A stretch of DNA of 64,000 nt from NCBI GenBank assembly GCA_963719495.1, contig CAVRCI010000014.1, positions 96,001 to 160,000 of the forward strand, read 5' to 3'. Origin of the DNA: an uncultured Verrucomicrobiae bacterium. Lineage in GTDB: Bacteria; Verrucomicrobiota; Verrucomicrobiia; Chthoniobacterales; JAATET01. Positions 9,680 to 39,968 of the stretch are shown piece after piece (position 1 is the first letter of the stretch; every line of letters starts with the position of its first letter). Under the pieces are notes generated by a model that was not told where the DNA came from, made no database searches, and worked only from the letters and a program-made list of their open reading frames with translations. A program made the translations under genes and the position numbers.

Positions 9680-10827
9680 GTGAGTTGGCGGATCGGGTGG
9701 GCGCGGCGTTCGAGGAGAACTTCGAACGGCACGGGGAGGTGGGGGCGGCGGTGGCCGTGTGGGACGCGGACGGGGTGGTCGCGGAGACTTGCGGGGGGTT
9801 TCGGGATCTGGCGCTGACGCAAGCTTGGAAGGACGATACGCTGGTGCTGATCTGGTCGGCGACGAAGGGGCTGGCGGCCTCGTGCGTGCTGCACGCGATG
9901 GCGGAGCGGGGGATTCCGATCGAGGCGCGGGTCGCGGAATTTTGGCCGGAATTCGGGCAGTGCGGGAAGGAGGCGATCACGGTGGGGCAGGTGCTTTCGC
10001 ACCGGGCGGGGTTGAGCGCGTTGGACGCGAGGGATCTCTCGGTGCTGAACCACGATGGGGTGGCGCGGGCGGTGGAGCGTCAGGTTCCTTTGTGGGACGA
10101 TGGGGCGCACGGGTATGGGCCGCGGACGTTTGGGTTCGTGGTCGACGAGATGGTTCGGCGGCTGGCTGGCGGGAAAACTTTGGGGGAATATTGGCGGGAG
10201 GTTTTTGCGGAGCCGCTGGGGTTGGATGCGTGGATCGGGTTGCCGGAGGAGCATCATGGCCGGGTGGCGCAGATGATCGCGGCGCGGGGGACGGGGTGCC
10301 TGGATGGGCAGGATGATTTCCTGGAGGCGATGGGAGATCCTTCGTCGTTGTCGCGCAAATCCTTCGGGACGCCGGGGGGCGTGTTGGGGGCGACTTCGAT
10401 GAACAGTCCGGCGATCCGGGGGGCCTCGTTGCCGTCGATGGGCGGGATTGCGACGGCGGGGGCGTTGGCGAAATTCTACGCGATGCTGGCGAACGGCGGG
10501 GTCTGGGGCGGGGCGCGGTTTTTTGGCGAGGAGAGTTTGCGTCACATGACGACGACGCTTTCGCAGGGGCGGGACAAGGTGCTCTTACTGGAGACGGCGT
10601 TTTCGGCTGGGTTCATGCGCGACCCGGTGGGGAACGATGGGGGGAAATTGCGGAAGACGTTCGGGCCTTCGGCGCGGGCGTTCGGGCATCCGGGGGCGGG
10701 GGGGAGTCTGGCTTTCGCGGATCCGGAGCGGGGGATTGGGTTTGCTTACGTGATGAATCAGATGGGCATGGGGGTGCTGCCGCAGGATCGGGCGGCTTCG
10801 CTGGTAAAAGCGGTTTATGCGAATTAG
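9676..10827 (+). CDS. Serine hydrolase, beta-lactamase/EstB family
   Basis: SxxK (WSATK), LSHRAGL, FGHPGAGG. Confidence 0.9.
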   Translation: MSELADRVGAAFEENFERHGEVGAAVAVWDADGVVAETCGGFRDLALTQAWKDDTLVLIWSATKGLAASCVLHAMAERGIPIEARVAEFWPEFGQCGKEAITVGQVLSHRAGLSALDARDLSVLNHDGVARAVERQVPLWDDGAHGYGPRTFGFVVDEMVRRLAGGKTLGEYWREVFAEPLGLDAWIGLPEEHHGRVAQMIAARGTGCLDGQDDFLEAMGDPSSLSRKSFGTPGGVLGATSMNSPAIRGASLPSMGGIATAGALAKFYAMLANGGVWGGARFFGEESLRHMTTTLSQGRDKVLLLETAFSAGFMRDPVGNDGGKLRKTFGPSARAFGHPGAGGSLAFADPERGIGFAYVMNQMGMGVLPQDRAASLVKAVYAN

Positions 10828-26583: not shown

Positions 26584-27027
26584 CTACGACGAAGCGGCGT
26601 TAATGACGTTCATCTCCTGCAATCCGAAGTATGACGCAGCGGCGAGAAAGTGACGATCGTTGGAAAAGACTTCGTTGAAGCCATGCTCGGCGGCACAGGC
26701 GAGATGCAGGGCGTCGGCGGCACGGAGAAAGGTGGTGGCAGGTGCCGCGGCGAGAATGGCATCGAGACGGCTCAAAGTTGGTTCCGTGACAGGCAGCCAA
26801 GTGAACAAGGAGGCCGATTGGTCACTGGAAAACTGGCTGCGTTGGGCCTGGTAGGCCTCCTTGTCCAGTCGGCCCTCACGGAAGGCACGGTGAAAGGTGC
26901 AGAGAAGCTCCGCTTGTGCATGCCAGGAAGCGGCAATAGGCGCAGTTTCCGCGAGGCTCCGAACCGCAGCGGAACCGTTTTCGTCCAGGTAAAGCCGGAC
27001 GAGATAGGTGGTGTCGAAAAAGATCAT
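26584..27027 (-). CDS. vapC: PIN-domain toxin (VapC family)
   Basis: IFFDTT, AEL, RAADALHLA, SNDRH acidic PIN residues; ATG at 27027. Confidence 0.88.
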   Translation of the reverse strand: MIFFDTTYLVRLYLDENGSAAVRSLAETAPIAASWHAQAELLCTFHRAFREGRLDKEAYQAQRSQFSSDQSASLFTWLPVTEPTLSRLDAILAAAPATTFLRAADALHLACAAEHGFNEVFSNDRHFLAAASYFGLQEMNVINAASS

Positions 27028-27302
27028 AACGGACAATCCGCCCGATCTTCCGAAATGAGATCCGTGATATCGCGATCTCCGGGCCTGGGGCGAAAGGCAC
27101 CTGCGGCCTGGAGTCTGGCAAACTCGGGCAGAACCTTGCGATTCGCCCACGGGCCGGTGCCGGCCAACCCAGTGCCCGCCGCCGGATTCAGCTCTTTTTC
27201 CAAAGAAGTCAGGACGAGTTGCCTGAGCGTTTGGTGACGTTCTATGGAACGGATTTTTGCCTTCTTGTAGAGGGACTCCGGAATGTCGATGGTCGTTTTT
27301 AT
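27024..27302 (-). CDS. Cognate antitoxin (ribbon-helix-helix-like), ATA start codon; not in ORF track
   Basis: Manual translation (I)KTTIDIPESLYKKAKIRSIERHQTLRQLVLTSLEKEL…DLISEDRADCPL*, ATGA overlap with vapC. Confidence 0.75.
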   Translation of the reverse strand: MKTTIDIPESLYKKAKIRSIERHQTLRQLVLTSLEKELNPAAGTGLAGTGPWANRKVLPEFARLQAAGAFRPRPGDRDITDLISEDRADCPL

Positions 27303-27308
27303 GGCGCA

Positions 27309-27336
27309 ACCATACGGAAAAACAGTTTGCCGTCAA
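27309..27336 (-). promoter_or_regulatory. Putative sigma-70 promoter for the TA operon (leaderless)
   Basis: TTGACG-16 nt-TATGGT, 6 nt upstream of the antitoxin first codon. Confidence 0.5.
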
Positions 27337-27568
27337 TCCGTCTCTTTGCGCATGATTTAGGCTAAGCCACTTCGTGTTGTCAGTCATCGCCCCGCCCAAC
27401 GCTTCCTCTCTGCATGGGAATCGAGAAGCCAGCAGCCTGTCGGACTGACCCGAATGGCGCTGCTTTGAGCGGGAGTTCGGGAAGCAAGATGGAGGGATGT
27501 CCGACGGATGGGCTTGAGCCCAAACTGACGTGTCTGGTGTCACTGGGCAACGGCGCGCGTCGTGCAAG

Positions 27569-29762: not shown

Positions 29763-29779
29763 TGAGACTGAATTGGAGT

Positions 29780-29950
29780 CAGGATTCGGAAGTAGGGGTT
29801 GGTGTGGACGAGGGTGAAATCGGGGAGCGAGTTTGGTCGTTGGAAGAGGGGGGTGGCCAGGACGTTGGGCGTTGGGGTTTCGCCGAGGAGGACGCTGAAG
29901 GTCGAGATGAGGCGGTCGGGTTCGTAGGCGATGACGTAGCGGACCTCGCG
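29780..29950 (-). repeat. Direct repeat copy of the 3' end of the STT3-like gene (partner ~35638-35808)
   Basis: REVRYVIAYEPDRLIST…TPNVLATPLFQRP…NPYFRIL encoded at both sites with high nucleotide identity. Confidence 0.92.
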
Positions 29951-30084
29951 GTGCTGCAAATCAGACGGACCCGGTCGTCGACGGCGCACGGCGCAATTCC
30001 TTTCAGAAGGGATCGGATCCGAGAGATGAGTTTTCATGCTGAAGGGTTCAGTGCAGCGGTCGTTCGAGATTGGCTCGGAAGAGG

Positions 30085-33000
30085 TCAAGAATTTTTCCGA
30101 CGTCGTCGAAGTCGCACCAGAATGAGCGCGGCGGCGAGGGCGGGCGGCAGAAGGGCAAAGAACTTGGGTTCCGGGACGGCTACGGCGACGGCGGCGACGC
30201 GAAAGCCGAAGGAAGAAAGTTCCAAGGCCGGATCGGTTGTGAAGGGTTGCGCCGAATCGAGAAAGAATACCGGGGCGTTCCAGTGTCCGCCGCGCGCGAT
30301 CCGGGTCTCGGTGCCGGAGTCGATGAACCCGTCGGAAGGACTTTCGGTCCACTCGAAGACGTTGCCGATCTGACCGACCGTTCCGTAGAAGCTTTGCCCG
30401 CCGGCGTTGTCGACGGCAGCGGGACCGGCGAAGTTGCCGCGTTGATACACCGCGGTGTTTGCCAGGGTGCCGCCGCTGACGGACGTCGGCGCGGTATCAC
30501 TCCCGGTGGCGTAGTCGAAGTAAGTGTCCCCGCTTCCGCTGTAGAACGCCGCCTTATACCACTCGTTCTCGGTCGGCAGGAAATACACCGCGTTGCTGTT
30601 CCGGAAGGGATTGCTCGGATTGTAGCCCGGGTCGGCGGAGGTCCAGAGGAGGTTGCTGGCGTTGGCGTCGTAGCCGGAATCGCCGGACTGAAGGTCGAAC
30701 TTGTAGGCCGCGGAGTGGCCGTGACTGGTGTTGAGCCAGTTGACGAATCGGGCCGCCTCGAACCAGGAGATTCCCGACGCGGGTCGGTTGTCGCCGTTGC
30801 CCCGACCGACGTTGTTGCGGTCGTAATCGAAGACCGTGATCCCGAGGCCACCTCCACCGGAGGCGACTGGGGCGTTGGCGGCGAGGACGTTCGCCCGGCT
30901 GACCTCGAAGGTGCCCATCCGGAAAGGATTCGTCACCGCACCGGACGGAGCGAAAAAGCTGCCGGTCGTGCCACGATCGGCGGGATTCCCCGGATTGCCG
31001 ACCGTCACGAATTCCAGCGTGAACTCGTTCGTACCGCTCCCGAAGACGTCGGCCCGAAGCGCCGTCGGGGTCGACAGCGTCAAGCAACCGGTGAGTGCCA
31101 ACGCGACGACCGACCCGTTTGGGCTCACGGACTTCGCGCTTCTCCCGCGAAGTCGCCGAGCCATTAGCAACGTGCCACCGAGGGCAAGCAGGACGAGCGT
31201 GCCGGGTTCGGGGACGGCGACTACGGCGAGGGTGCCGGTCGCGGCGAAGGCGGACGTGTCCCAGGCAAGGCCGGCACCCAACGTGGGCAGTAGGAACTCG
31301 GCGTTCGCTCCGACGAGGATCGCGCCAGCGTCCACAAGGTCGTAGCGATCCCCAGCCGTGGGTCGGTAGTCGCCGAAGAGCGAGACTTCGAGGTCGCCCG
31401 AAAGCGTCAGGACGCCGTCGATCGTCAGGCGATCGAAGTTGTCGAGATCGAACAGGTCGAAAACGATGGTTCCGGCCAGATCGATCTCGACGTTGCCGGT
31501 GAAGGCGATCGTCGCCGTCCCGAGATCGTCGCCGGGGGCGAGGGTTCCGGAGAAGACGGCATCGCCGGTCCCGGTGAAACGGCCGCGGCCGGAAACGTCG
31601 CCGGTCAGGCGGGATTCGCCCGTCACGTCCACCGACGAGTTTCCGAAGGTGCGGAGCGTGCCGTCGATCGTGCCGTCATCGAGGGTGATGCGGGTGAAGT
31701 TGTCGATCCCGCCGACTCCGCCGTCGATGGAGCCGCCGAAGACCTGGAGGGTGCCGATATTCGTGATTCCCTCTTGCGCGACGAGCCGGCCGAGGACGAA
31801 CAGATCGTCCTGGTGGGTCAGCGCTCCCTCGTAGGTGAGCGACCCGTTGGTCGGCACGAACTCGTCGTTGCCGAAGAGGCCGGGGGAGCCGATGAAGTCG
31901 GTTTGCCCGGCGTTGCGGATGGTCACGTCGGTGTCGAACCACCGGAGATTGCCAACACCGCGGGTGACCTGGATGCTCTCGGCGCTGAAGGTGCCCCCCA
32001 CCAGCCGCAGGAGGGAGTCGAGGCGGACGCTGTCGGCGCGGAAGCTGCCCGACAACAGCTCGATGCCTACCAGCACGCCGCTCGTTTCCGAGCGGATCGT
32101 AACGTCGTTAGCCGTGACATCCCCGCCGTTGATGCGGAGCAACGAAATGTCGTTCAGGTCGAGCGTTCCGAAGTCGGCCGTGCCGCCGGCCAGAACCTCG
32201 GTGAATCCGCGAGGGGACAGAGACGACGACTGCGAGAGCTCGGTGGAGTCGGAACGGACGGTCCCGCCGGCCCCGATGGTGAAACTGCCGGACCCGGAGA
32301 CGAGCCGTTCGGCGGAAAGGACGCTGCGGCCGAGCGTGTCGAGCACCGCACTGCGAACGTCCACGACGGTGGTCGCGTTGAACGTCGCCTGGCTGCCCTG
32401 GGTGGAGTCGAGGGTCGAGTGGGCCAGGGTCGAGCCGTTGAGCACCTGGACGTCGAATCGCGCGTTGTCGGGGTTCGGGTCGGTGGTGGTGGCGCCGTAG
32501 AGACCGTTGCCCACCGCCAGGCTGCTTCCGGTGTTGAGCGTCAGCCGATCCGGTGCGGGAGTCTGATCGATCCGGTTGCTGCGGGCGAGGTCGAGTTCGC
32601 GCACCTCGCCGGTCGAGCCGCCTGTGAGCGAGAAAATCAATGCGCCGGATCCCTCCCCGCCGCGCACCAGGTTGGCGAAGAAGGTGGATCCGCCGATGAG
32701 ATTGATGGCGCCGCTGGCTCCGTTTGCTGCGAGCGACAGGCCGTCGAAGCGCACGTGCGAGCCCCCGCTCGCCTCGAGGCCGCCGCTGAATCCGTTGCCT
32801 TGCCCGATCGCCGAGGAGCCGCCGGCGATGAGGGTGGCCCCGTCCTCCACGGTCAATCGCGCGCCGTGCTGGGGAAGCGTGATGAAGTTGAAGCGATCGA
32901 TCTGTGCGGCGATGTTGAGCTGGCCGGTGTCGAGCGTGGCGTCGCCGTCGAAGTTCAGCAGGCGGACGGTGGTGAAGGTCCCGCCGACGTTGCCGCTGTT

Positions 33001-34065
33001 GGTCGCTCCGATGGTGACGTCCAAGGTCGACAGCAAGCCTTCGGGCATCAGGATCATCGACGCGTTGCCACCGAAGCGCAGGCGCTGCACGCTCGTGCCG
33101 TCGAAGATTCGCAGCCCGCCGGGGTTGATGATGGAGCGTTCGATGACGACCAGGTCGGTCCCGCTCGGGACGCGTCCGGGGGACCAGTTGCGCGAGTCGC
33201 CGAAGAACCGCGGGTTCACGACCGGCGAGTCGCCGGTGTAGAAGACGGTGGATTGCCCGTGGGCCGGTGCGGCAACGGACAAGGCAGCGGCGGCGAGCGC
33301 GACGGCGGGGGCGAGGCCCCGAAGGATCGAGCTGGGTGGAGAGTTGGTTGAAGCTCGGCTGCGGAGGCGACGTCGCCGAGCCAGCAGCAGCGCGGCACCC
33401 AGCGCGAACAGCGCGGCGTTGGCGGGCTCGGGGACAGGGACGGGATTGATCGTGAGAGTCAGGGTGTCCACCGCGGGCGTATCGAAGTCCATGCCGACGA
33501 GGTAGGTCCAGGTGTAGGTGCCCGGCGTGAGGCCGAGGCTGCCGTAGGTCGCGCCAGTGTAGGTGCTGCCGCCCAACAGGGTCAGGCCGGAGGTGTAGCC
33601 CTGCGGCACGACCAATCCGAAATTCGGGCCGCTCCCCGGCACCGCGCTGGGGTTGAACGACAGGCCGAATACGTCGCCGGTGTTGAAGTCGGCATTGGTG
33701 ATGTCGCTGCCGTCGCCGAAGGACGCGGGGCCTCCGCCAAGGGTGGCGTAAACATCGGGGGCCACGGATTCACCCACCGCCCAGAGGGGTAGGTTGGGCA
33801 GGATGCCGCCCCCGAGCGGCCCCGATGGCATCGCCGCCACTTCGGGAAGGTCCAGCGACCCGCCGCCGGTGAAGACGACGTCGTTGCCGACCTGATTGAC
33901 GCTGACGAGGACTGCGGCCGAGGCGGGTGCGGGGAGCAGCAGGCTCAGCATCCCGAGGATCGTGCCGACGGAGAGTGAGCGAAAGCGGGTGAAGGGGCTG
34001 GAGGTTTCCTGCGCCCCCCGGGGGGTGGCGAAGCAGGGGGCGAGGATCTGTTTTGTCTTTTTCAT
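30085..34065 (-). CDS. Triple PEP-CTERM polyprotein (small beta domain + beta-helix/autotransporter-like repeat domain + FGE-sulfatase-like domain)
   Basis: One open frame; VPEP-TM-RRR at 33424-33435, 31204-31215, 30166-30177; signal-peptide-like segments before each module; likely ATG at 34065. Confidence 0.88.
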   Translation of the reverse strand: MKKTKQILAPCFATPRGAQETSSPFTRFRSLSVGTILGMLSLLLPAPASAAVLVSVNQVGNDVVFTGGGSLDLPEVAAMPSGPLGGGILPNLPLWAVGESVAPDVYATLGGGPASFGDGSDITNADFNTGDVFGLSFNPSAVPGSGPNFGLVVPQGYTSGLTLLGGSTYTGATYGSLGLTPGTYTWTYLVGMDFDTPAVDTLTLTINPVPVPEPANAALFALGAALLLARRRRLRSRASTNSPPSSILRGLAPAVALAAAALSVAAPAHGQSTVFYTGDSPVVNPRFFGDSRNWSPGRVPSGTDLVVIERSIINPGGLRIFDGTSVQRLRFGGNASMILMPEGLLSTLDVTIGATNSGNVGGTFTTVRLLNFDGDATLDTGQLNIAAQIDRFNFITLPQHGARLTVEDGATLIAGGSSAIGQGNGFSGGLEASGGSHVRFDGLSLAANGASGAINLIGGSTFFANLVRGGEGSGALIFSLTGGSTGEVRELDLARSNRIDQTPAPDRLTLNTGSSLAVGNGLYGATTTDPNPDNARFDVQVLNGSTLAHSTLDSTQGSQATFNATTVVDVRSAVLDTLGRSVLSAERLVSGSGSFTIGAGGTVRSDSTELSQSSSLSPRGFTEVLAGGTADFGTLDLNDISLLRINGGDVTANDVTIRSETSGVLVGIELLSGSFRADSVRLDSLLRLVGGTFSAESIQVTRGVGNLRWFDTDVTIRNAGQTDFIGSPGLFGNDEFVPTNGSLTYEGALTHQDDLFVLGRLVAQEGITNIGTLQVFGGSIDGGVGGIDNFTRITLDDGTIDGTLRTFGNSSVDVTGESRLTGDVSGRGRFTGTGDAVFSGTLAPGDDLGTATIAFTGNVEIDLAGTIVFDLFDLDNFDRLTIDGVLTLSGDLEVSLFGDYRPTAGDRYDLVDAGAILVGANAEFLLPTLGAGLAWDTSAFAATGTLAVVAVPEPGTLVLLALGGTLLMARRLRGRSAKSVSPNGSVVALALTGCLTLSTPTALRADVFGSGTNEFTLEFVTVGNPGNPADRGTTGSFFAPSGAVTNPFRMGTFEVSRANVLAANAPVASGGGGLGITVFDYDRNNVGRGNGDNRPASGISWFEAARFVNWLNTSHGHSAAYKFDLQSGDSGYDANASNLLWTSADPGYNPSNPFRNSNAVYFLPTENEWYKAAFYSGSGDTYFDYATGSDTAPTSVSGGTLANTAVYQRGNFAGPAAVDNAGGQSFYGTVGQIGNVFEWTESPSDGFIDSGTETRIARGGHWNAPVFFLDSAQPFTTDPALELSSFGFRVAAVAVAVPEPKFFALLPPALAAALILVRLRRRRKNS

Positions 34066-34096
34066 TTGGGCATTTTTTCGAGGTTGCTGCGGCATG

Positions 34097-34223
34097 TTTA
34101 CTAATCGGTATAGTATAGAGCTCGACTTACAAATTTTTTCGTCGAAGAAATTGCGTGTAAGCTCGAAAAATAAAGTCATCGGGGGCATAAATCGCCGACC
34201 ACGAATGTCGACTAGTCAGTCGA
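34097..34223. promoter_or_regulatory. Candidate TetR operators in the divergent intergenic region
   Basis: Perfect 6-4-6 palindrome TCGACT-AGTC-AGTCGA (34208-34223); imperfect TTTACT-AATC-GGTATA (34097-34112). Confidence 0.5.
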
Positions 34224-34250
34224 GTTCTTTGGTGCGATGGTCTTCGCTTC

Positions 34251-34832
34251 ATGTCCCTCAAGCGCGAGCAAACCCTTCAGTCCGCCCGAAGGCTCTTCCT
34301 CGCGAACGGGTTCCACAAGACCAGCGTGGACGCGATTGCCGCGGACGCCGGGACCACCAAGATGACGGTTTACGCGCACTTCAAGACGAAGGACAATCTC
34401 ATCATCGAAGTCCTGCGGGAGGTTAGTGCGCTAACCCGCGGCGGGCTGCAGCGGGAACTGGCAAAACGCGCCGCGACGCCGCGGGAGCGCATTCTGGCGA
34501 CGTTCGACGTGATGGGCGAAGAGTTCGGGCGGCCGGATTTCCGGGGTTCGCTCTTCACGAATGCCGCGTCCGAGTTCACCGGACTCAACGAGCCGATCCT
34601 GGCGGCGGTCGCCAATCACAACGCGCTCGTGCAAGCGGACCTGGCCACGCTCTGTCAGGAAGCCGGAGCGGACCACCCGATCGAGCTGGCCGATCAGCTT
34701 TATTTTCTGATCGAAGGTGCCGCGGTGATGGCGCAAATTCGCCGGGAATCCAATCCGGCCGCGCTCGCCCGGCGATCCGCCGAAACCCTCCTCAATGCCA
34801 GCCTGCCAGCCCGCAAACGATTGAAGCCATGA
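34251..34832 (+). CDS. TetR/AcrR family regulator
   Basis: LFLANGFHKTSVDAIAADAGTTKMTVYAHFKTKDNL HTH. Confidence 0.93.
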   Translation: MSLKREQTLQSARRLFLANGFHKTSVDAIAADAGTTKMTVYAHFKTKDNLIIEVLREVSALTRGGLQRELAKRAATPRERILATFDVMGEEFGRPDFRGSLFTNAASEFTGLNEPILAAVANHNALVQADLATLCQEAGADHPIELADQLYFLIEGAAVMAQIRRESNPAALARRSAETLLNASLPARKRLKP

Positions 34833-35401
34833 CGACGGAAACTCCCGATTCACCCCAAGCGTCCCTCTTCCAAGCCGCCGGGCGGCTTTTCAACGAAGGC
34901 AGTTACCAAAGCGTCACCATCGAGGAACTGATCACCGCCGCCGGGGTGAGCCGGACGGTATTCGACGCGCTCTTCGAGACGAAGGAAGATCTCATCGTCG
35001 CCTACCTGGAGGATCGGGACCGGATGCTGCGCGGCTATTTTTTCACCGAGGTCACCAAGCGCGGCCACGACGACCCCCGCGCGACGTTGCTCGCGCTCTT
35101 CGACGTGCTGGGCGAATGGTTCCGCGACGAATCCTTCTACGGCTGCATCTTTTCCAACGCGTGCAGCGAATACGGACAGGGCGACCACCCGGTCCACCAG
35201 GTCGCGGCGCGGCACAAGAAGCGCTTCCGGGATTTCATCCTCGCCCGCGTCGAAGAAATCGGCTTCGACGATCCCGAGCAGAAGGCCGACGAGATCACCT
35301 TTCTCATGGAGGGTGCCATCATCACCGCGCACATCCGTCGCGACGCCCGCACCGCCCAGTCCGCCCGCAAGGCGGCGGAGGTCCTCTTGGGCGGGACGTA
35401 G
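34829..35401 (+). CDS. TetR/AcrR family regulator (second, paralogous)
   Basis: IEELITAAGVSRTVFDALFETKEDL; FYGCIFSNA; ATGA overlap with upstream TetR. Confidence 0.9.
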   Translation: MTTETPDSPQASLFQAAGRLFNEGSYQSVTIEELITAAGVSRTVFDALFETKEDLIVAYLEDRDRMLRGYFFTEVTKRGHDDPRATLLALFDVLGEWFRDESFYGCIFSNACSEYGQGDHPVHQVAARHKKRFRDFILARVEEIGFDDPEQKADEITFLMEGAIITAHIRRDARTAQSARKAAEVLLGGT

Positions 35402-35594
35402 TCGAACGCCATCAAGGAGGTGGTTGTAGTTTGTCGATGGGCTTGGCGACTTTTTGGATTCGCAAAGGAAAGTTCGCCCGTCCGTTTCGAGATGGGGAAC
35501 GGCTCGATCCCGGAGTCTGCCTCGTTCCGTGGTCTGGCTGTCGGCTTGCTCTGGTGTTGGATACTCCCGTGAAGCCGCGAAGAATCCCCGCCGA

Positions 35595-37202
35595 TCAATC
35601 GACCCCGCCGCGTCCCGGCGGAGTCGCTCGCTGGCTGAGGATGCGGAAGTAGGGGTTGGAATAGACGAGGGTGAAGTCGGGGAGGGTGGCGGGTCGTTGG
35701 AAGAGGGGGGTGGCCAGGACGTTGGGCGTTGGGGATTCGTCGAGGAGGATGCTGGAGGTCGAGATGAGGCGGTCGGGTTCGTAGGCGATGACGTAGCGGA
35801 CCTCGCGGCGGGCGAGGATGGCGAGGGCGTCGGCGGGATTTTTCGCCAAGTAGAAACGCGCGGTGTCGACGATGCCGGGGAGGCTCTGGTGGGAACTGCC
35901 GCCGACGCAGGGCTGACCCGACCAATACGCGATGGCGGGGCAGAGCCACCACGGGGCGAGGATCGGGGTGGTTTCGGTGGAGACGAGGGCGGTGGCCGCT
36001 TGGCGGAGGAGGATGTTTTCGGTGCGCTGGTCTTCGAGGGCGGCCTGGGCGGCGGGGGGCGGGTAGAGTTTGGTGTCCCAGGCGGAGAGAATGGGGAGGA
36101 GGCTGAGGGTGAAGATCGTGTAAGCGGCGAGGCGGGACGGGATGGCGACGAGGGCGGTTGGGAGGAGGAGGGCGGTGAAGGTGATGGCGAAGGGGGCCCA
36201 GCGGATTTGCCATGCGGTTAGGGCGAGGGTGGCGAGCGCTAGCGCGATGAGGAGGGGTGAATGGTGAATGGTGACTAGTGAATGGTGGGATGCGGGTGAG
36301 GCTTTCTGGCGAATTGTGCGCCAGATCGCGAGAGGCACGACTAGCGGGATGAGGTAGCCGAACCAGGCGAACCATCGGGTGGAGAGGATTGGGACTTGGC
36401 GGAGTTCGGCCAGGAGGGTGGCCCATCTTGGGAAGTATTCTCCGACTTCGGGCGGGAGGGGGCGGATTCGCCAGCCGTCGAAGAGGACCGCGACGGCGAG
36501 AACGGAGAGGGTAATGGCTGCGGCTAGGAGAAATGACCTCCTGCCGCTGACCTCCGACTTCTGGCCCGGGATGAGGCGGCTCAGGAGGACGAGGGTGAGG
36601 ATGATGACTGGCTCGAAGAGGGTGACCCAGAGGGCTGCGCCCCAGATGAGGCCCCAGGCGAGGGTCCAGGGTCGGGAGCGCGTGCGGCGGAGGGAGATCT
36701 CGGCGGCCAGGCCGGCGGCGAGGAGGGCGAGGGTGAGGGATTGGTGGTCGGGGCGGCCGATTTCGAAGGCTTGGACGACGATCGGGGAGGCCGCGAGGAT
36801 GAGGAGGGCGGGGAAGCGGTAGGGCCATTTCTCCCGGCCCATCCAGACCCAGAGGAAGGTGAGGAGGGCGAGGGAGAGGAGCGGGGAGATCCAGGCTCCG
36901 GCGAGTTCCATCGGGTCGGCGGTGAAGGGCGAGAGGGCGACCGTGAGCCCGGCGATGAGGAGGTCGAAGGGGGCGGTGGTGTGGGGGTCGGTGCCGGCGG
37001 GATGGTTTTCGAACTCGTGATGGTCGATGCGGGTGAACGGGTGCTCGAGGACTCGCTGGACGCGGGTCATTCGCGAGTAGCAATCGGCGTCGATGAAGTA
37101 GATGTCGCCGCCGACGAAGACTTCGTCGCGGTTCGCGGTGGTGGCTGCGAGGTTGAGCGCGAGGAGGATGACCAGAAGGGCGATGGAGCGGGCGGTTCGC
37201 AC
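35595..37202 (-). CDS. STT3/AglB-like membrane glycosyltransferase (oligosaccharyltransferase-like)
   Basis: FIDADCYSRMTRV, FENHPAG, RPDHQ, many TMs, LAPWWLCPAIAYW at the WWDYG position. Confidence 0.7.
   Translation of the reverse strand: MRTARSIALLVILLALNLAATTANRDEVFVGGDIYFIDADCYSRMTRVQRVLEHPFTRIDHHEFENHPAGTDPHTTAPFDLLIAGLTVALSPFTADPMELAGAWISPLLSLALLTFLWVWMGREKWPYRFPALLILAASPIVVQAFEIGRPDHQSLTLALLAAGLAAEISLRRTRSRPWTLAWGLIWGAALWVTLFEPVIILTLVLLSRLIPGQKSEVSGRRSFLLAAAITLSVLAVAVLFDGWRIRPLPPEVGEYFPRWATLLAELRQVPILSTRWFAWFGYLIPLVVPLAIWRTIRQKASPASHHSLVTIHHSPLLIALALATLALTAWQIRWAPFAITFTALLLPTALVAIPSRLAAYTIFTLSLLPILSAWDTKLYPPPAAQAALEDQRTENILLRQAATALVSTETTPILAPWWLCPAIAYWSGQPCVGGSSHQSLPGIVDTARFYLAKNPADALAILARREVRYVIAYEPDRLISTSSILLDESPTPNVLATPLFQRPATLPDFTLVYSNPYFRILSQRATPPGRGGVD

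Positions 37203-37334: not shown

Positions 37335-39968
<2,634 letters not shown>

Follow-up and report, generated by a model that had tools for sequence, protein, structure and literature searches.

Can a bacterium lay out several surface proteins end to end in a single gene, each with its own export signal and its own sorting tag? This question is raised by a stop-free open reading frame (ORF) in a 64,000-nucleotide stretch of DNA from an uncultured Verrucomicrobiae bacterium (positions 96,001 to 160,000 of contig CAVRCI010000014.1, assembly GCA_963719495.1), the whole of which we call the window. Co-expression in bacteria is thought to run via operons, and polyproteins are mostly viral. The ORF lies on the minus strand between 34188 and 30085 and contains three modules, each made up of a signal peptide, a domain and a PEP-CTERM sorting tag. 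Its anatomy is conserved, its downstream modules are under selection, and signal peptidase I and exosortase genes are both present in the genome. We consider it probable that the gene encodes a secretory polyprotein that these two enzymes would cleave. The architecture resembles a viral strategy, with one long chain probably cut into three surface proteins.

Three modules in a single frame

Counted from its first ATG, the frame encodes 1367 residues, and from ATG 34095 it encodes 1336 (P0001, whose residue numbering is used here). In the database the gene is called from ATG 34065, with 1326 residues (P0016); this is the likelier of the two starts, judging from a relative described below (P0018) with a matching Met-Lys start region. 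Several complete proteins lie in one frame, as in polyproteins processed by signal peptidase. A VPEP motif followed by a helix and an Arg cluster occurs at residues 221, 961 and 1307 (positions 33435, 31215 and 30177), and this is the only one of the 56 tag-bearing frames in the genome with multiple PEP-CTERM motifs. A preliminary description of this DNA had claimed one stop-free frame with three modules, and the claim is confirmed: both junctions are open, the layout recurs in relatives, and the mature starts that it had placed at QSTVFY (33255) and DVFGSG (31050) agree in position with those predicted here.

The tags were scanned singly against TIGR02595 (cut-off 16 bits) and PF07589 (cut-off 20.7 bits). 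On TIGR02595 both internal tags outscore the terminal tag (Table 1), which by itself has no TIGR02595 match at E ≤ 0.5 and no Pfam (PF07589) match at E ≤ 1 and is the degenerate one; only two of the three TIGR02595 matches expected beforehand were obtained. The whole protein belongs to the PEP-CTERM group by both models (24.9 bits with TIGR02595, 21.3 bits with PF07589). It has an N-terminal signal peptide, by hydropathy only, in a hydrophobic segment ending APASA, and it is encoded in a genome that holds two exosortase genes (PF09721, 154 and 144 bits) together with many tags, as well as a signal peptidase I gene. Two of its three tags depart from the extreme C-terminal placement of the group, lying 1116 and 376 residues before the C-terminus. 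Signal peptides were assigned from hydropathy, the -3/-1 rule and inspection by eye, not with SignalP. By this heuristic test a basic loop comes after each internal tag, then a hydrophobic stretch and then a -3/-1 site; these supply the n-, h- and c-regions of a signal peptide.

For module 1 there are 207 homologs with lengths near 200 residues; among the 120 listed, 114 carry the tag at the end and none carries an internal tag. Its model is all-beta with a predicted local distance difference test (pLDDT) score of 91. A fold search of 48,161 chains gave none at Z ≥ 5, the best value of 3.4 not establishing a new fold, and the best score in the ESM Atlas (0.82) is a lead only. The family is one of small, widespread PEP-CTERM proteins without a name. 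Module 2 has no family match in Pfam or NCBIfam and returned nothing at E ≤ 0.001 in a Foldseek search, and its seven distant homologs have a PEP-type tag at their ends. Its low-confidence model (mean pLDDT 48.5) aligns with the beta-helices of autotransporter passengers, best with Vag8 (Z 20.8, root-mean-square deviation 4.6, 361 aligned residues) and also with pertactin (Z 16.7). Unlike autotransporter passengers, module 2 terminates in a PEP tag and not in a barrel; it is a probable adhesin.

Module 3 belongs to the FGE-sulfatase family (PF03781, E 1.4e-13, 51.5 bits against a cut-off of 23.3), and its closest solved relative is Treponema denticola variable protein 1 (TvpA; E 3e-15), which points to a probable binding protein. 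Two other assignments were tried and rejected. A catalytic formylglycine-generating enzyme or EgtB does not fit a TIGR03440 score of 17.3 bits against 360 and a mature sequence without Cys; a diversity-generating retroelement, prompted by the TvpA match, was dropped because the genome holds no further copy of module 3's 3′ end. The closest relatives with names are Verrucomicrobiota and Planctomycetota, which suggests a host in the Planctomycetes-Verrucomicrobia-Chlamydiae (PVC) group. Of the tags near module 3 relatives, only 3 of 93 (78 genome loci) and 2 of 86 (79 metagenome loci) are internal, and in G001 and G002, two genomes of the same genus, module 3 is a stand-alone gene. At one locus (L044, near 9594, plus strand) an internal PEP-CTERM lies 1021 residues before the end of a 1255-residue frame, with no clear signal peptide directly after it. 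Taken together, the products of the three modules look like surface binding or adhesion proteins.

Conservation and recurrence of the junctions

The polyprotein query was run against 41 genomes (G000 is the genome of the window, and the other G numbers are comparison genomes). Among these, the triple occurs in two genomes of the same genus, G003 (96-98% identical) and G005 (82% identical), with both junctions open in each. G003 has a one-base difference in a G run within module 2 that shifts the frame, which means that these assemblies contain indels. In G005 (L021, about 10556-10590) module 3 runs after some 70 residues into unrelated sequence, through a deletion or misassembly. An intact triple of 1391 residues on another contig (P0018) has open junctions of the G005 type and a complete module 3. 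With this query the triple was not recovered in the same-genus genomes G001, G002 and G004 (93, 97 and 88% complete). The preliminary description had named stops or indels at the junctions as what would undo it; both junctions are open in four divergent assemblies. Among contigs from four runs, a short-read contig covers 33037-33427 and spans junction 1 with zero differences (it may come from the source sample), and no spanning piece for junction 2 is among the contig pieces listed from those runs. At junction 1 a hot-spring contig has 219 letters against 162, or 57 more, and it is not counted as evidence.

The junctions of G000 and G005 are heavily diverged, with a synonymous substitution rate (dS) of 0.8-1.1 on few codons, yet the hydrophobic stretch and identical mature starts are kept. 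From tag start to mature start, junctions 1 and 2 measure 60 and 55 residues in G000 and 57 and 71 residues in G005, so that the changes are of whole codons. Between the two genomes, the ratio of nonsynonymous to synonymous rates (dN/dS) is 0.17, 0.22 and 0.16 over modules 2 and 3 (the last on 64 codons; module 2 spans 0.17-0.22), 0.6-0.8 over linker and signal, and 0.57 over module 1. Purifying selection thus acts on modules 2 and 3.

Similar junctions were found well beyond these close relatives. Without any junction profile, 7 of the 14 whole-protein homologs have internal tag and signal junctions; two of the seven are close relatives, and one homolog is a seven-module Pirellulales protein. 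The fusion is therefore not unique; a unique fusion, with all homologs as separate genes, was what the preliminary description had listed against itself. A junction profile was built from eight junctions and searched against 1.84 billion cluster representatives at E ≤ 0.001. It matched 2,773 protein clusters, of which the best 150 were inspected and the remainder may include ordinary single-tag proteins. An internal tag is present in 148 of the best 150, and 147 have 2 to 10 motifs. In this set a second uncharged hydrophobic segment follows within 60 residues for 257 of 267 internal tags, as against 204 of 2632 random windows (7.8%). Ala-X-Ala follows the second segment in 194 of the 257 cases where shuffling expects 130, and Met occurs in only 69 of the 257 linkers, whose median length is 11 residues. 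When the cut site is anchored by homology within the module 3 family, all 13 fused members and 14 of the 15 stand-alone ones have Ala at -1, and every fused member also keeps a small or aliphatic residue at -3.

Clustering of 420 modules excised from 157 proteins gave 175 groups. Lectin-like and carbohydrate-binding domains are the commonest named ones in the 25 proteins scanned, and four of the ten top profile matches that were looked up are named Planctomycetales. Within the taxonomic family of G000, three further two-module genes are present in G013 and G015 (from 30 loci and 6 regions). Two-module genes in that family stand at L184 (1510, plus strand) and L212 (1860, plus strand), and the L212 junction precedes a different kind of domain. 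From this recurrence, the combination of tag, basic loop and signal may well be a reusable junction, found mainly in the PVC group where matches are named, that builds virus-like polyproteins of two to ten unrelated surface proteins to be cut by signal peptidase I and exosortase; we lean slightly toward this generalization.

Proposed processing of the chain and its alternatives

In the mechanism that we favor, Sec export of module 1 would be begun by signal peptide 1, and the helix of the first PEP-CTERM tag would halt transfer, its Arg cluster staying cytoplasmic as the positive-inside rule predicts. The basic loop would then supply the n-region for the hydrophobic segment that follows; this segment would re-enter the translocon and export module 2, and the same step repeated for module 3 would thread the chain out-in-out-in-out. 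Signal peptidase I would cut behind each internal signal to give three membrane-anchored proteins with the N-termini AVLVSV, QSTVFY and DVFGSG. One of the two exosortases would finally act at each PEP motif and leave short two-helix remnants in the membrane. Fixed stoichiometry, which had been offered as the purpose of the arrangement, is without support: G005 has a shortened module 3, and in close relatives module 3 is a gene of its own.

The main mechanistic rival, which we regard as unlikely, is that the chain is exported with its internal signals uncut or only partly cut. It would then be a multi-pass protein, or exosortase would free the upstream module only and leave the next one tethered by a two-helix hairpin. 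An N-out helix, a short basic loop and a signal-anchor before a large periplasmic domain make up a normal uncut topology, such as that of E. coli leader peptidase, and the G000 sites (A-H-G and L-R-A) are short of the ideal Ala-X-Ala. Cleavage is favored, on the other hand, by the -1 Ala and the small or aliphatic -3 residue kept in every fused member of the module 3 family, by the excess of Ala-X-Ala over shuffles, and by internal tags that outscore the terminal one. A quite improbable alternative is that modules 2 and 3 are translated chiefly from internal starts, as in an operon, the read-through tails being incidental. Junction 2 of G000 does have an in-frame ATG (31164) and GTG (31128), and junction 1 of G005 has several GTG codons. 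However, the ATG reads CTG in G003, junction 1 of G000 has no in-frame ATG, GTG or TTG before the hydrophobic core (nor does that of G003), junction 2 of G005 has a TTG only, immediately ahead of the core, and no such codon ahead of either internal core is common to G000 and G005. Without stops, moreover, the first start would still yield the full chain. No clear Shine-Dalgarno-like run was seen by eye before the internal candidate starts, and none before the real start either. Since no start is shared and the downstream modules are under purifying selection, production of modules 2 and 3 from the single upstream start is the simplest reading.

That an assembly or base-calling artefact joined three genes is scarcely credible. 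The G-run difference in G003 and the lack of a listed contig piece across junction 2 leave some room for it, but it is largely refuted by four separate divergent assemblies with both junctions open, and the short-read contig across junction 1, perhaps from the source sample, has no difference. Another alternative addresses the reason for the gene's existence and can hold together with the cleavage proposed above. The fusion may be a tolerated accident, in which stops and starts between in-frame tandem genes were lost and the product is cut apart with no selective gain, and we give this a little less than an even chance. It would account for a homologous pair that is unfused in G013 and fused in G015, for the rarity of internal tags near module 3 relatives, for the loss of most of module 3 in G005, and for the stand-alone module 3 of G001 and G002. 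It sits less well with a triple that persists across lineages despite strongly diverged junction DNA and with arrays of up to ten modules joined by very short linkers. As the reason that the fusion persists, a tolerated accident is about as likely as a benefit, for which co-expression is a candidate.

A cleaved secretory polyprotein must also be weighed against a number of contrary points, some of them from the literature. According to Haft et al. 2006 (PMC1569441), a median of three residues separates the end of canonical PEP-CTERM tags from the C-terminus, and long-tailed tags are suggested to be possibly non-functional; in the gene described here the internal tags score best, which is the reverse of that view. 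A 2018 review (PMC6098224) states that exosortases were not yet analysed experimentally. An archaeal fusion protein with a central tag, HVO_0405, is described as strain-specific and as unstable when uncut (PMC7157517). Within our own data, the hydrophobic core is weakest in signal peptide 3 (no 15-residue window reaches a mean of 1.9), which also has a Leu at -3, and module 3 of G005 ends early, after about 70 residues. The statistics for the best 150 matches are inflated, because those matches were picked by a profile that contains the signal part, and of the 13 fused module 3 cases, six came from the junction profile and three are the polyprotein gene and its close relatives. The search for other ORFs with an internal PEP-CTERM and a signal, as proposed in the preliminary description, succeeded with the profile and among the whole-protein homologs; a phylum-wide search of 401 genomes, with only 15 candidates scored per genome, listed 37 matches, none of which was a full junction free of stops in any genome but G000. 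Finally, shuffled linkers remain open 71-82% of the time in this GC-rich DNA (0.71-0.82 per linker), and linker openness was dropped as evidence for a polyprotein. With such shuffles, the earlier argument that two like junctions exclude an accident is weak; the two are perhaps not independent events, because they are alike in DNA (76% over 76 nucleotides).

Precedents, origin and surroundings

Cleavage at an internal signal that splits one precursor into several membrane or exported proteins is known from FbcH of Bradyrhizobium japonicum and from viral polyproteins cut by signal peptidase. FbcH gives rise to two subunits, both of a single fixed complex, and lacks sorting tags, whereas the polyprotein strings unrelated surface modules in variable combinations. 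With the substrates of the PEP-CTERM/exosortase (EpsH, Xrt) system, the polyprotein shares the PEP motif, helix and Arg cluster, the N-terminal signal peptide, the many tags per genome and the exosortase genes; it differs in having two full-scoring tags in mid-chain, each followed by a signal peptide and a whole further module. The nearest precedents have a single internal tag. HVO_0405 of Haloferax volcanii is a two-gene fusion whose central sorting tag has been shown experimentally to be cleaved by archaeosortase (PMC7157517). Like the polyprotein, it has a sorting tag left in mid-chain by gene fusion, but it is archaeal and a single strain-specific fusion with one internal tag, and the available text makes no mention of a second export signal. 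MXAN_5598 of Myxococcus xanthus likewise has an internal tripartite tag (MYXO-CTERM) and a proposed origin from two fused genes, with processing also proposed (PMC11980579). It differs in its tag and enzyme and in having one internal tag, and the accessible part of that report mentions neither an internal signal peptide nor repeated modules. The literature that was searched, with incomplete coverage, gave no description of PEP-CTERM polyproteins or of repeated tag and signal modules, and the latter are not described in the available portions of bioRxiv 10.1101/2023.06.07.544157, PMC12188702, PMC6098224 and PMC4960237. Regardless of the precedents for single internal tags, the layout of repeated PEP-CTERM tags and signals in one frame is real, conserved, recurrent and apparently undescribed.

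If the proposed processing is correct, the tag-plus-signal junction would overturn, in a single class of surface proteins, the operon-only and end-of-protein-tag rules. Among annotated proteins, thousands of "multi-domain" entries would be precursors, many long PVC annotations would be corrected, and the junction would be a natural tool to export several proteins from one frame. Exosortase cleavage would also be easy to test in these genes, because a cut would change the product's size by tens of kilodaltons, whereas the usual removal of 25 residues is hard to see. A large difference of this kind was exploited for archaeosortase with HVO_0405 (PMC7157517).

In terms of origin, relatives of modules 1 and 3 are mostly stand-alone with tags that are nearly all terminal, and the fusion is therefore the derived state. 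The best explanation is that the gene arose by fusion of three formerly separate PEP-CTERM genes. In G013 an in-frame tandem pair is split by a TAA, 17 codons and an ATG (L201, tag near 1704, minus strand), and in G015 the homologous pair, with 47-49% identity in both modules, is fused via a short linker (L206, tag near 1638, minus strand). This pair reveals the route, in which tandem genes lost the stop and spacer that divided them, and it provides a natural before and after comparison of an unfused and a fused gene. The relatedness of the two junctions of the polyprotein gene, together with the recurrence of the linker start of G000 junction 1 at G005 junction 2, hints that the junction itself was duplicated or converted.

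The polyprotein gene and two divergent TetR-family genes, likely regulators by homology, are enclosed by 171-base-pair direct repeats, which duplicate the 3′ end of the adjacent STT3-like gene (Table 1). Identity to G003 is 96.5% over a 6.4-kilobase stretch (29774-36226) but 82-88% in its flanks, and the stretch looks like a cassette or island recently exchanged between species. The STT3-like protein could be a glycosylator of PEP-CTERM proteins. A promoter scan gave no sigma-70-like sites, and terminator-like sites were no more frequent than chance.

Table 1. Coordinates in the window of the polyprotein gene, its parts and the neighboring features
Feature	Positions	Strand	Description
Polyprotein ORF	30085..34095	minus	About 1330 aa (amino acids); three modules, each signal peptide, domain and PEP-CTERM
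Signal peptide 1	33916..34065	minus	Predicted cut after APASA; hydrophobic segment at residues 40-66 of P0001
Module 1 mature domain	33436..33915	minus	160 aa, all-beta; widespread family of stand-alone PEP-CTERM proteins of about 200 aa
Internal PEP-CTERM tag 1	33364..33435	minus	VPEP, helix, Arg cluster; TIGR02595 27.8 bits; PF07589 19.6 bits, slightly below cut-off
Basic cytoplasmic linker and internal signal peptide 2	33256..33363	minus	Predicted cut after APAHG; hydrophobic segment at residues 260-278; loop net charge +7
Module 2 mature domain	31216..33255	minus	680 aa; putative beta-helix resembling autotransporter passengers
Internal PEP-CTERM tag 2	31150..31215	minus	TIGR02595 28.6 bits; PF07589 26.3 bits
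Basic linker and internal signal peptide 3	31051..31149	minus	Predicted cut after TALRA; loop net charge +5
Module 3 mature domain	30178..31050	minus	291 aa; FGE-sulfatase family
Terminal PEP-CTERM-like tag 3 and stop codon	30085..30177	minus	Divergent; VPEP-helix-RRRRK by sequence
Two TetR-family regulator genes	34251..35401	plus	PF00440 in both; divergent from the polyprotein gene; region also adjoins the gene in G003 and G005
Direct repeat, left copy	29781..29951		171 base pairs; 91.8% identical to 35638-35808; both copies also in G003
Direct repeat, right copy	35638..35808		Inside the 3′ end of the STT3-like membrane protein gene
STT3-like membrane protein gene	35595-37202	minus	Weak match to TIGR04154 (archaeosortase-associated STT3 oligosaccharyl transferase), E 1.4e-4, far under cut-off
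PIN-domain gene	26584-27567	minus	Flanks the region
DNA gyrase B gene	37374-39968	plus	Flanks the region

Elsewhere in G000 (contig C5, near 141584) and at L213-L215, across four genomes of the genus in all, a PEP-CTERM gene and its single stop are succeeded by a long ORF in the same frame; this ORF opens with a hydrophobic stretch, and no ATG is obvious close to it.

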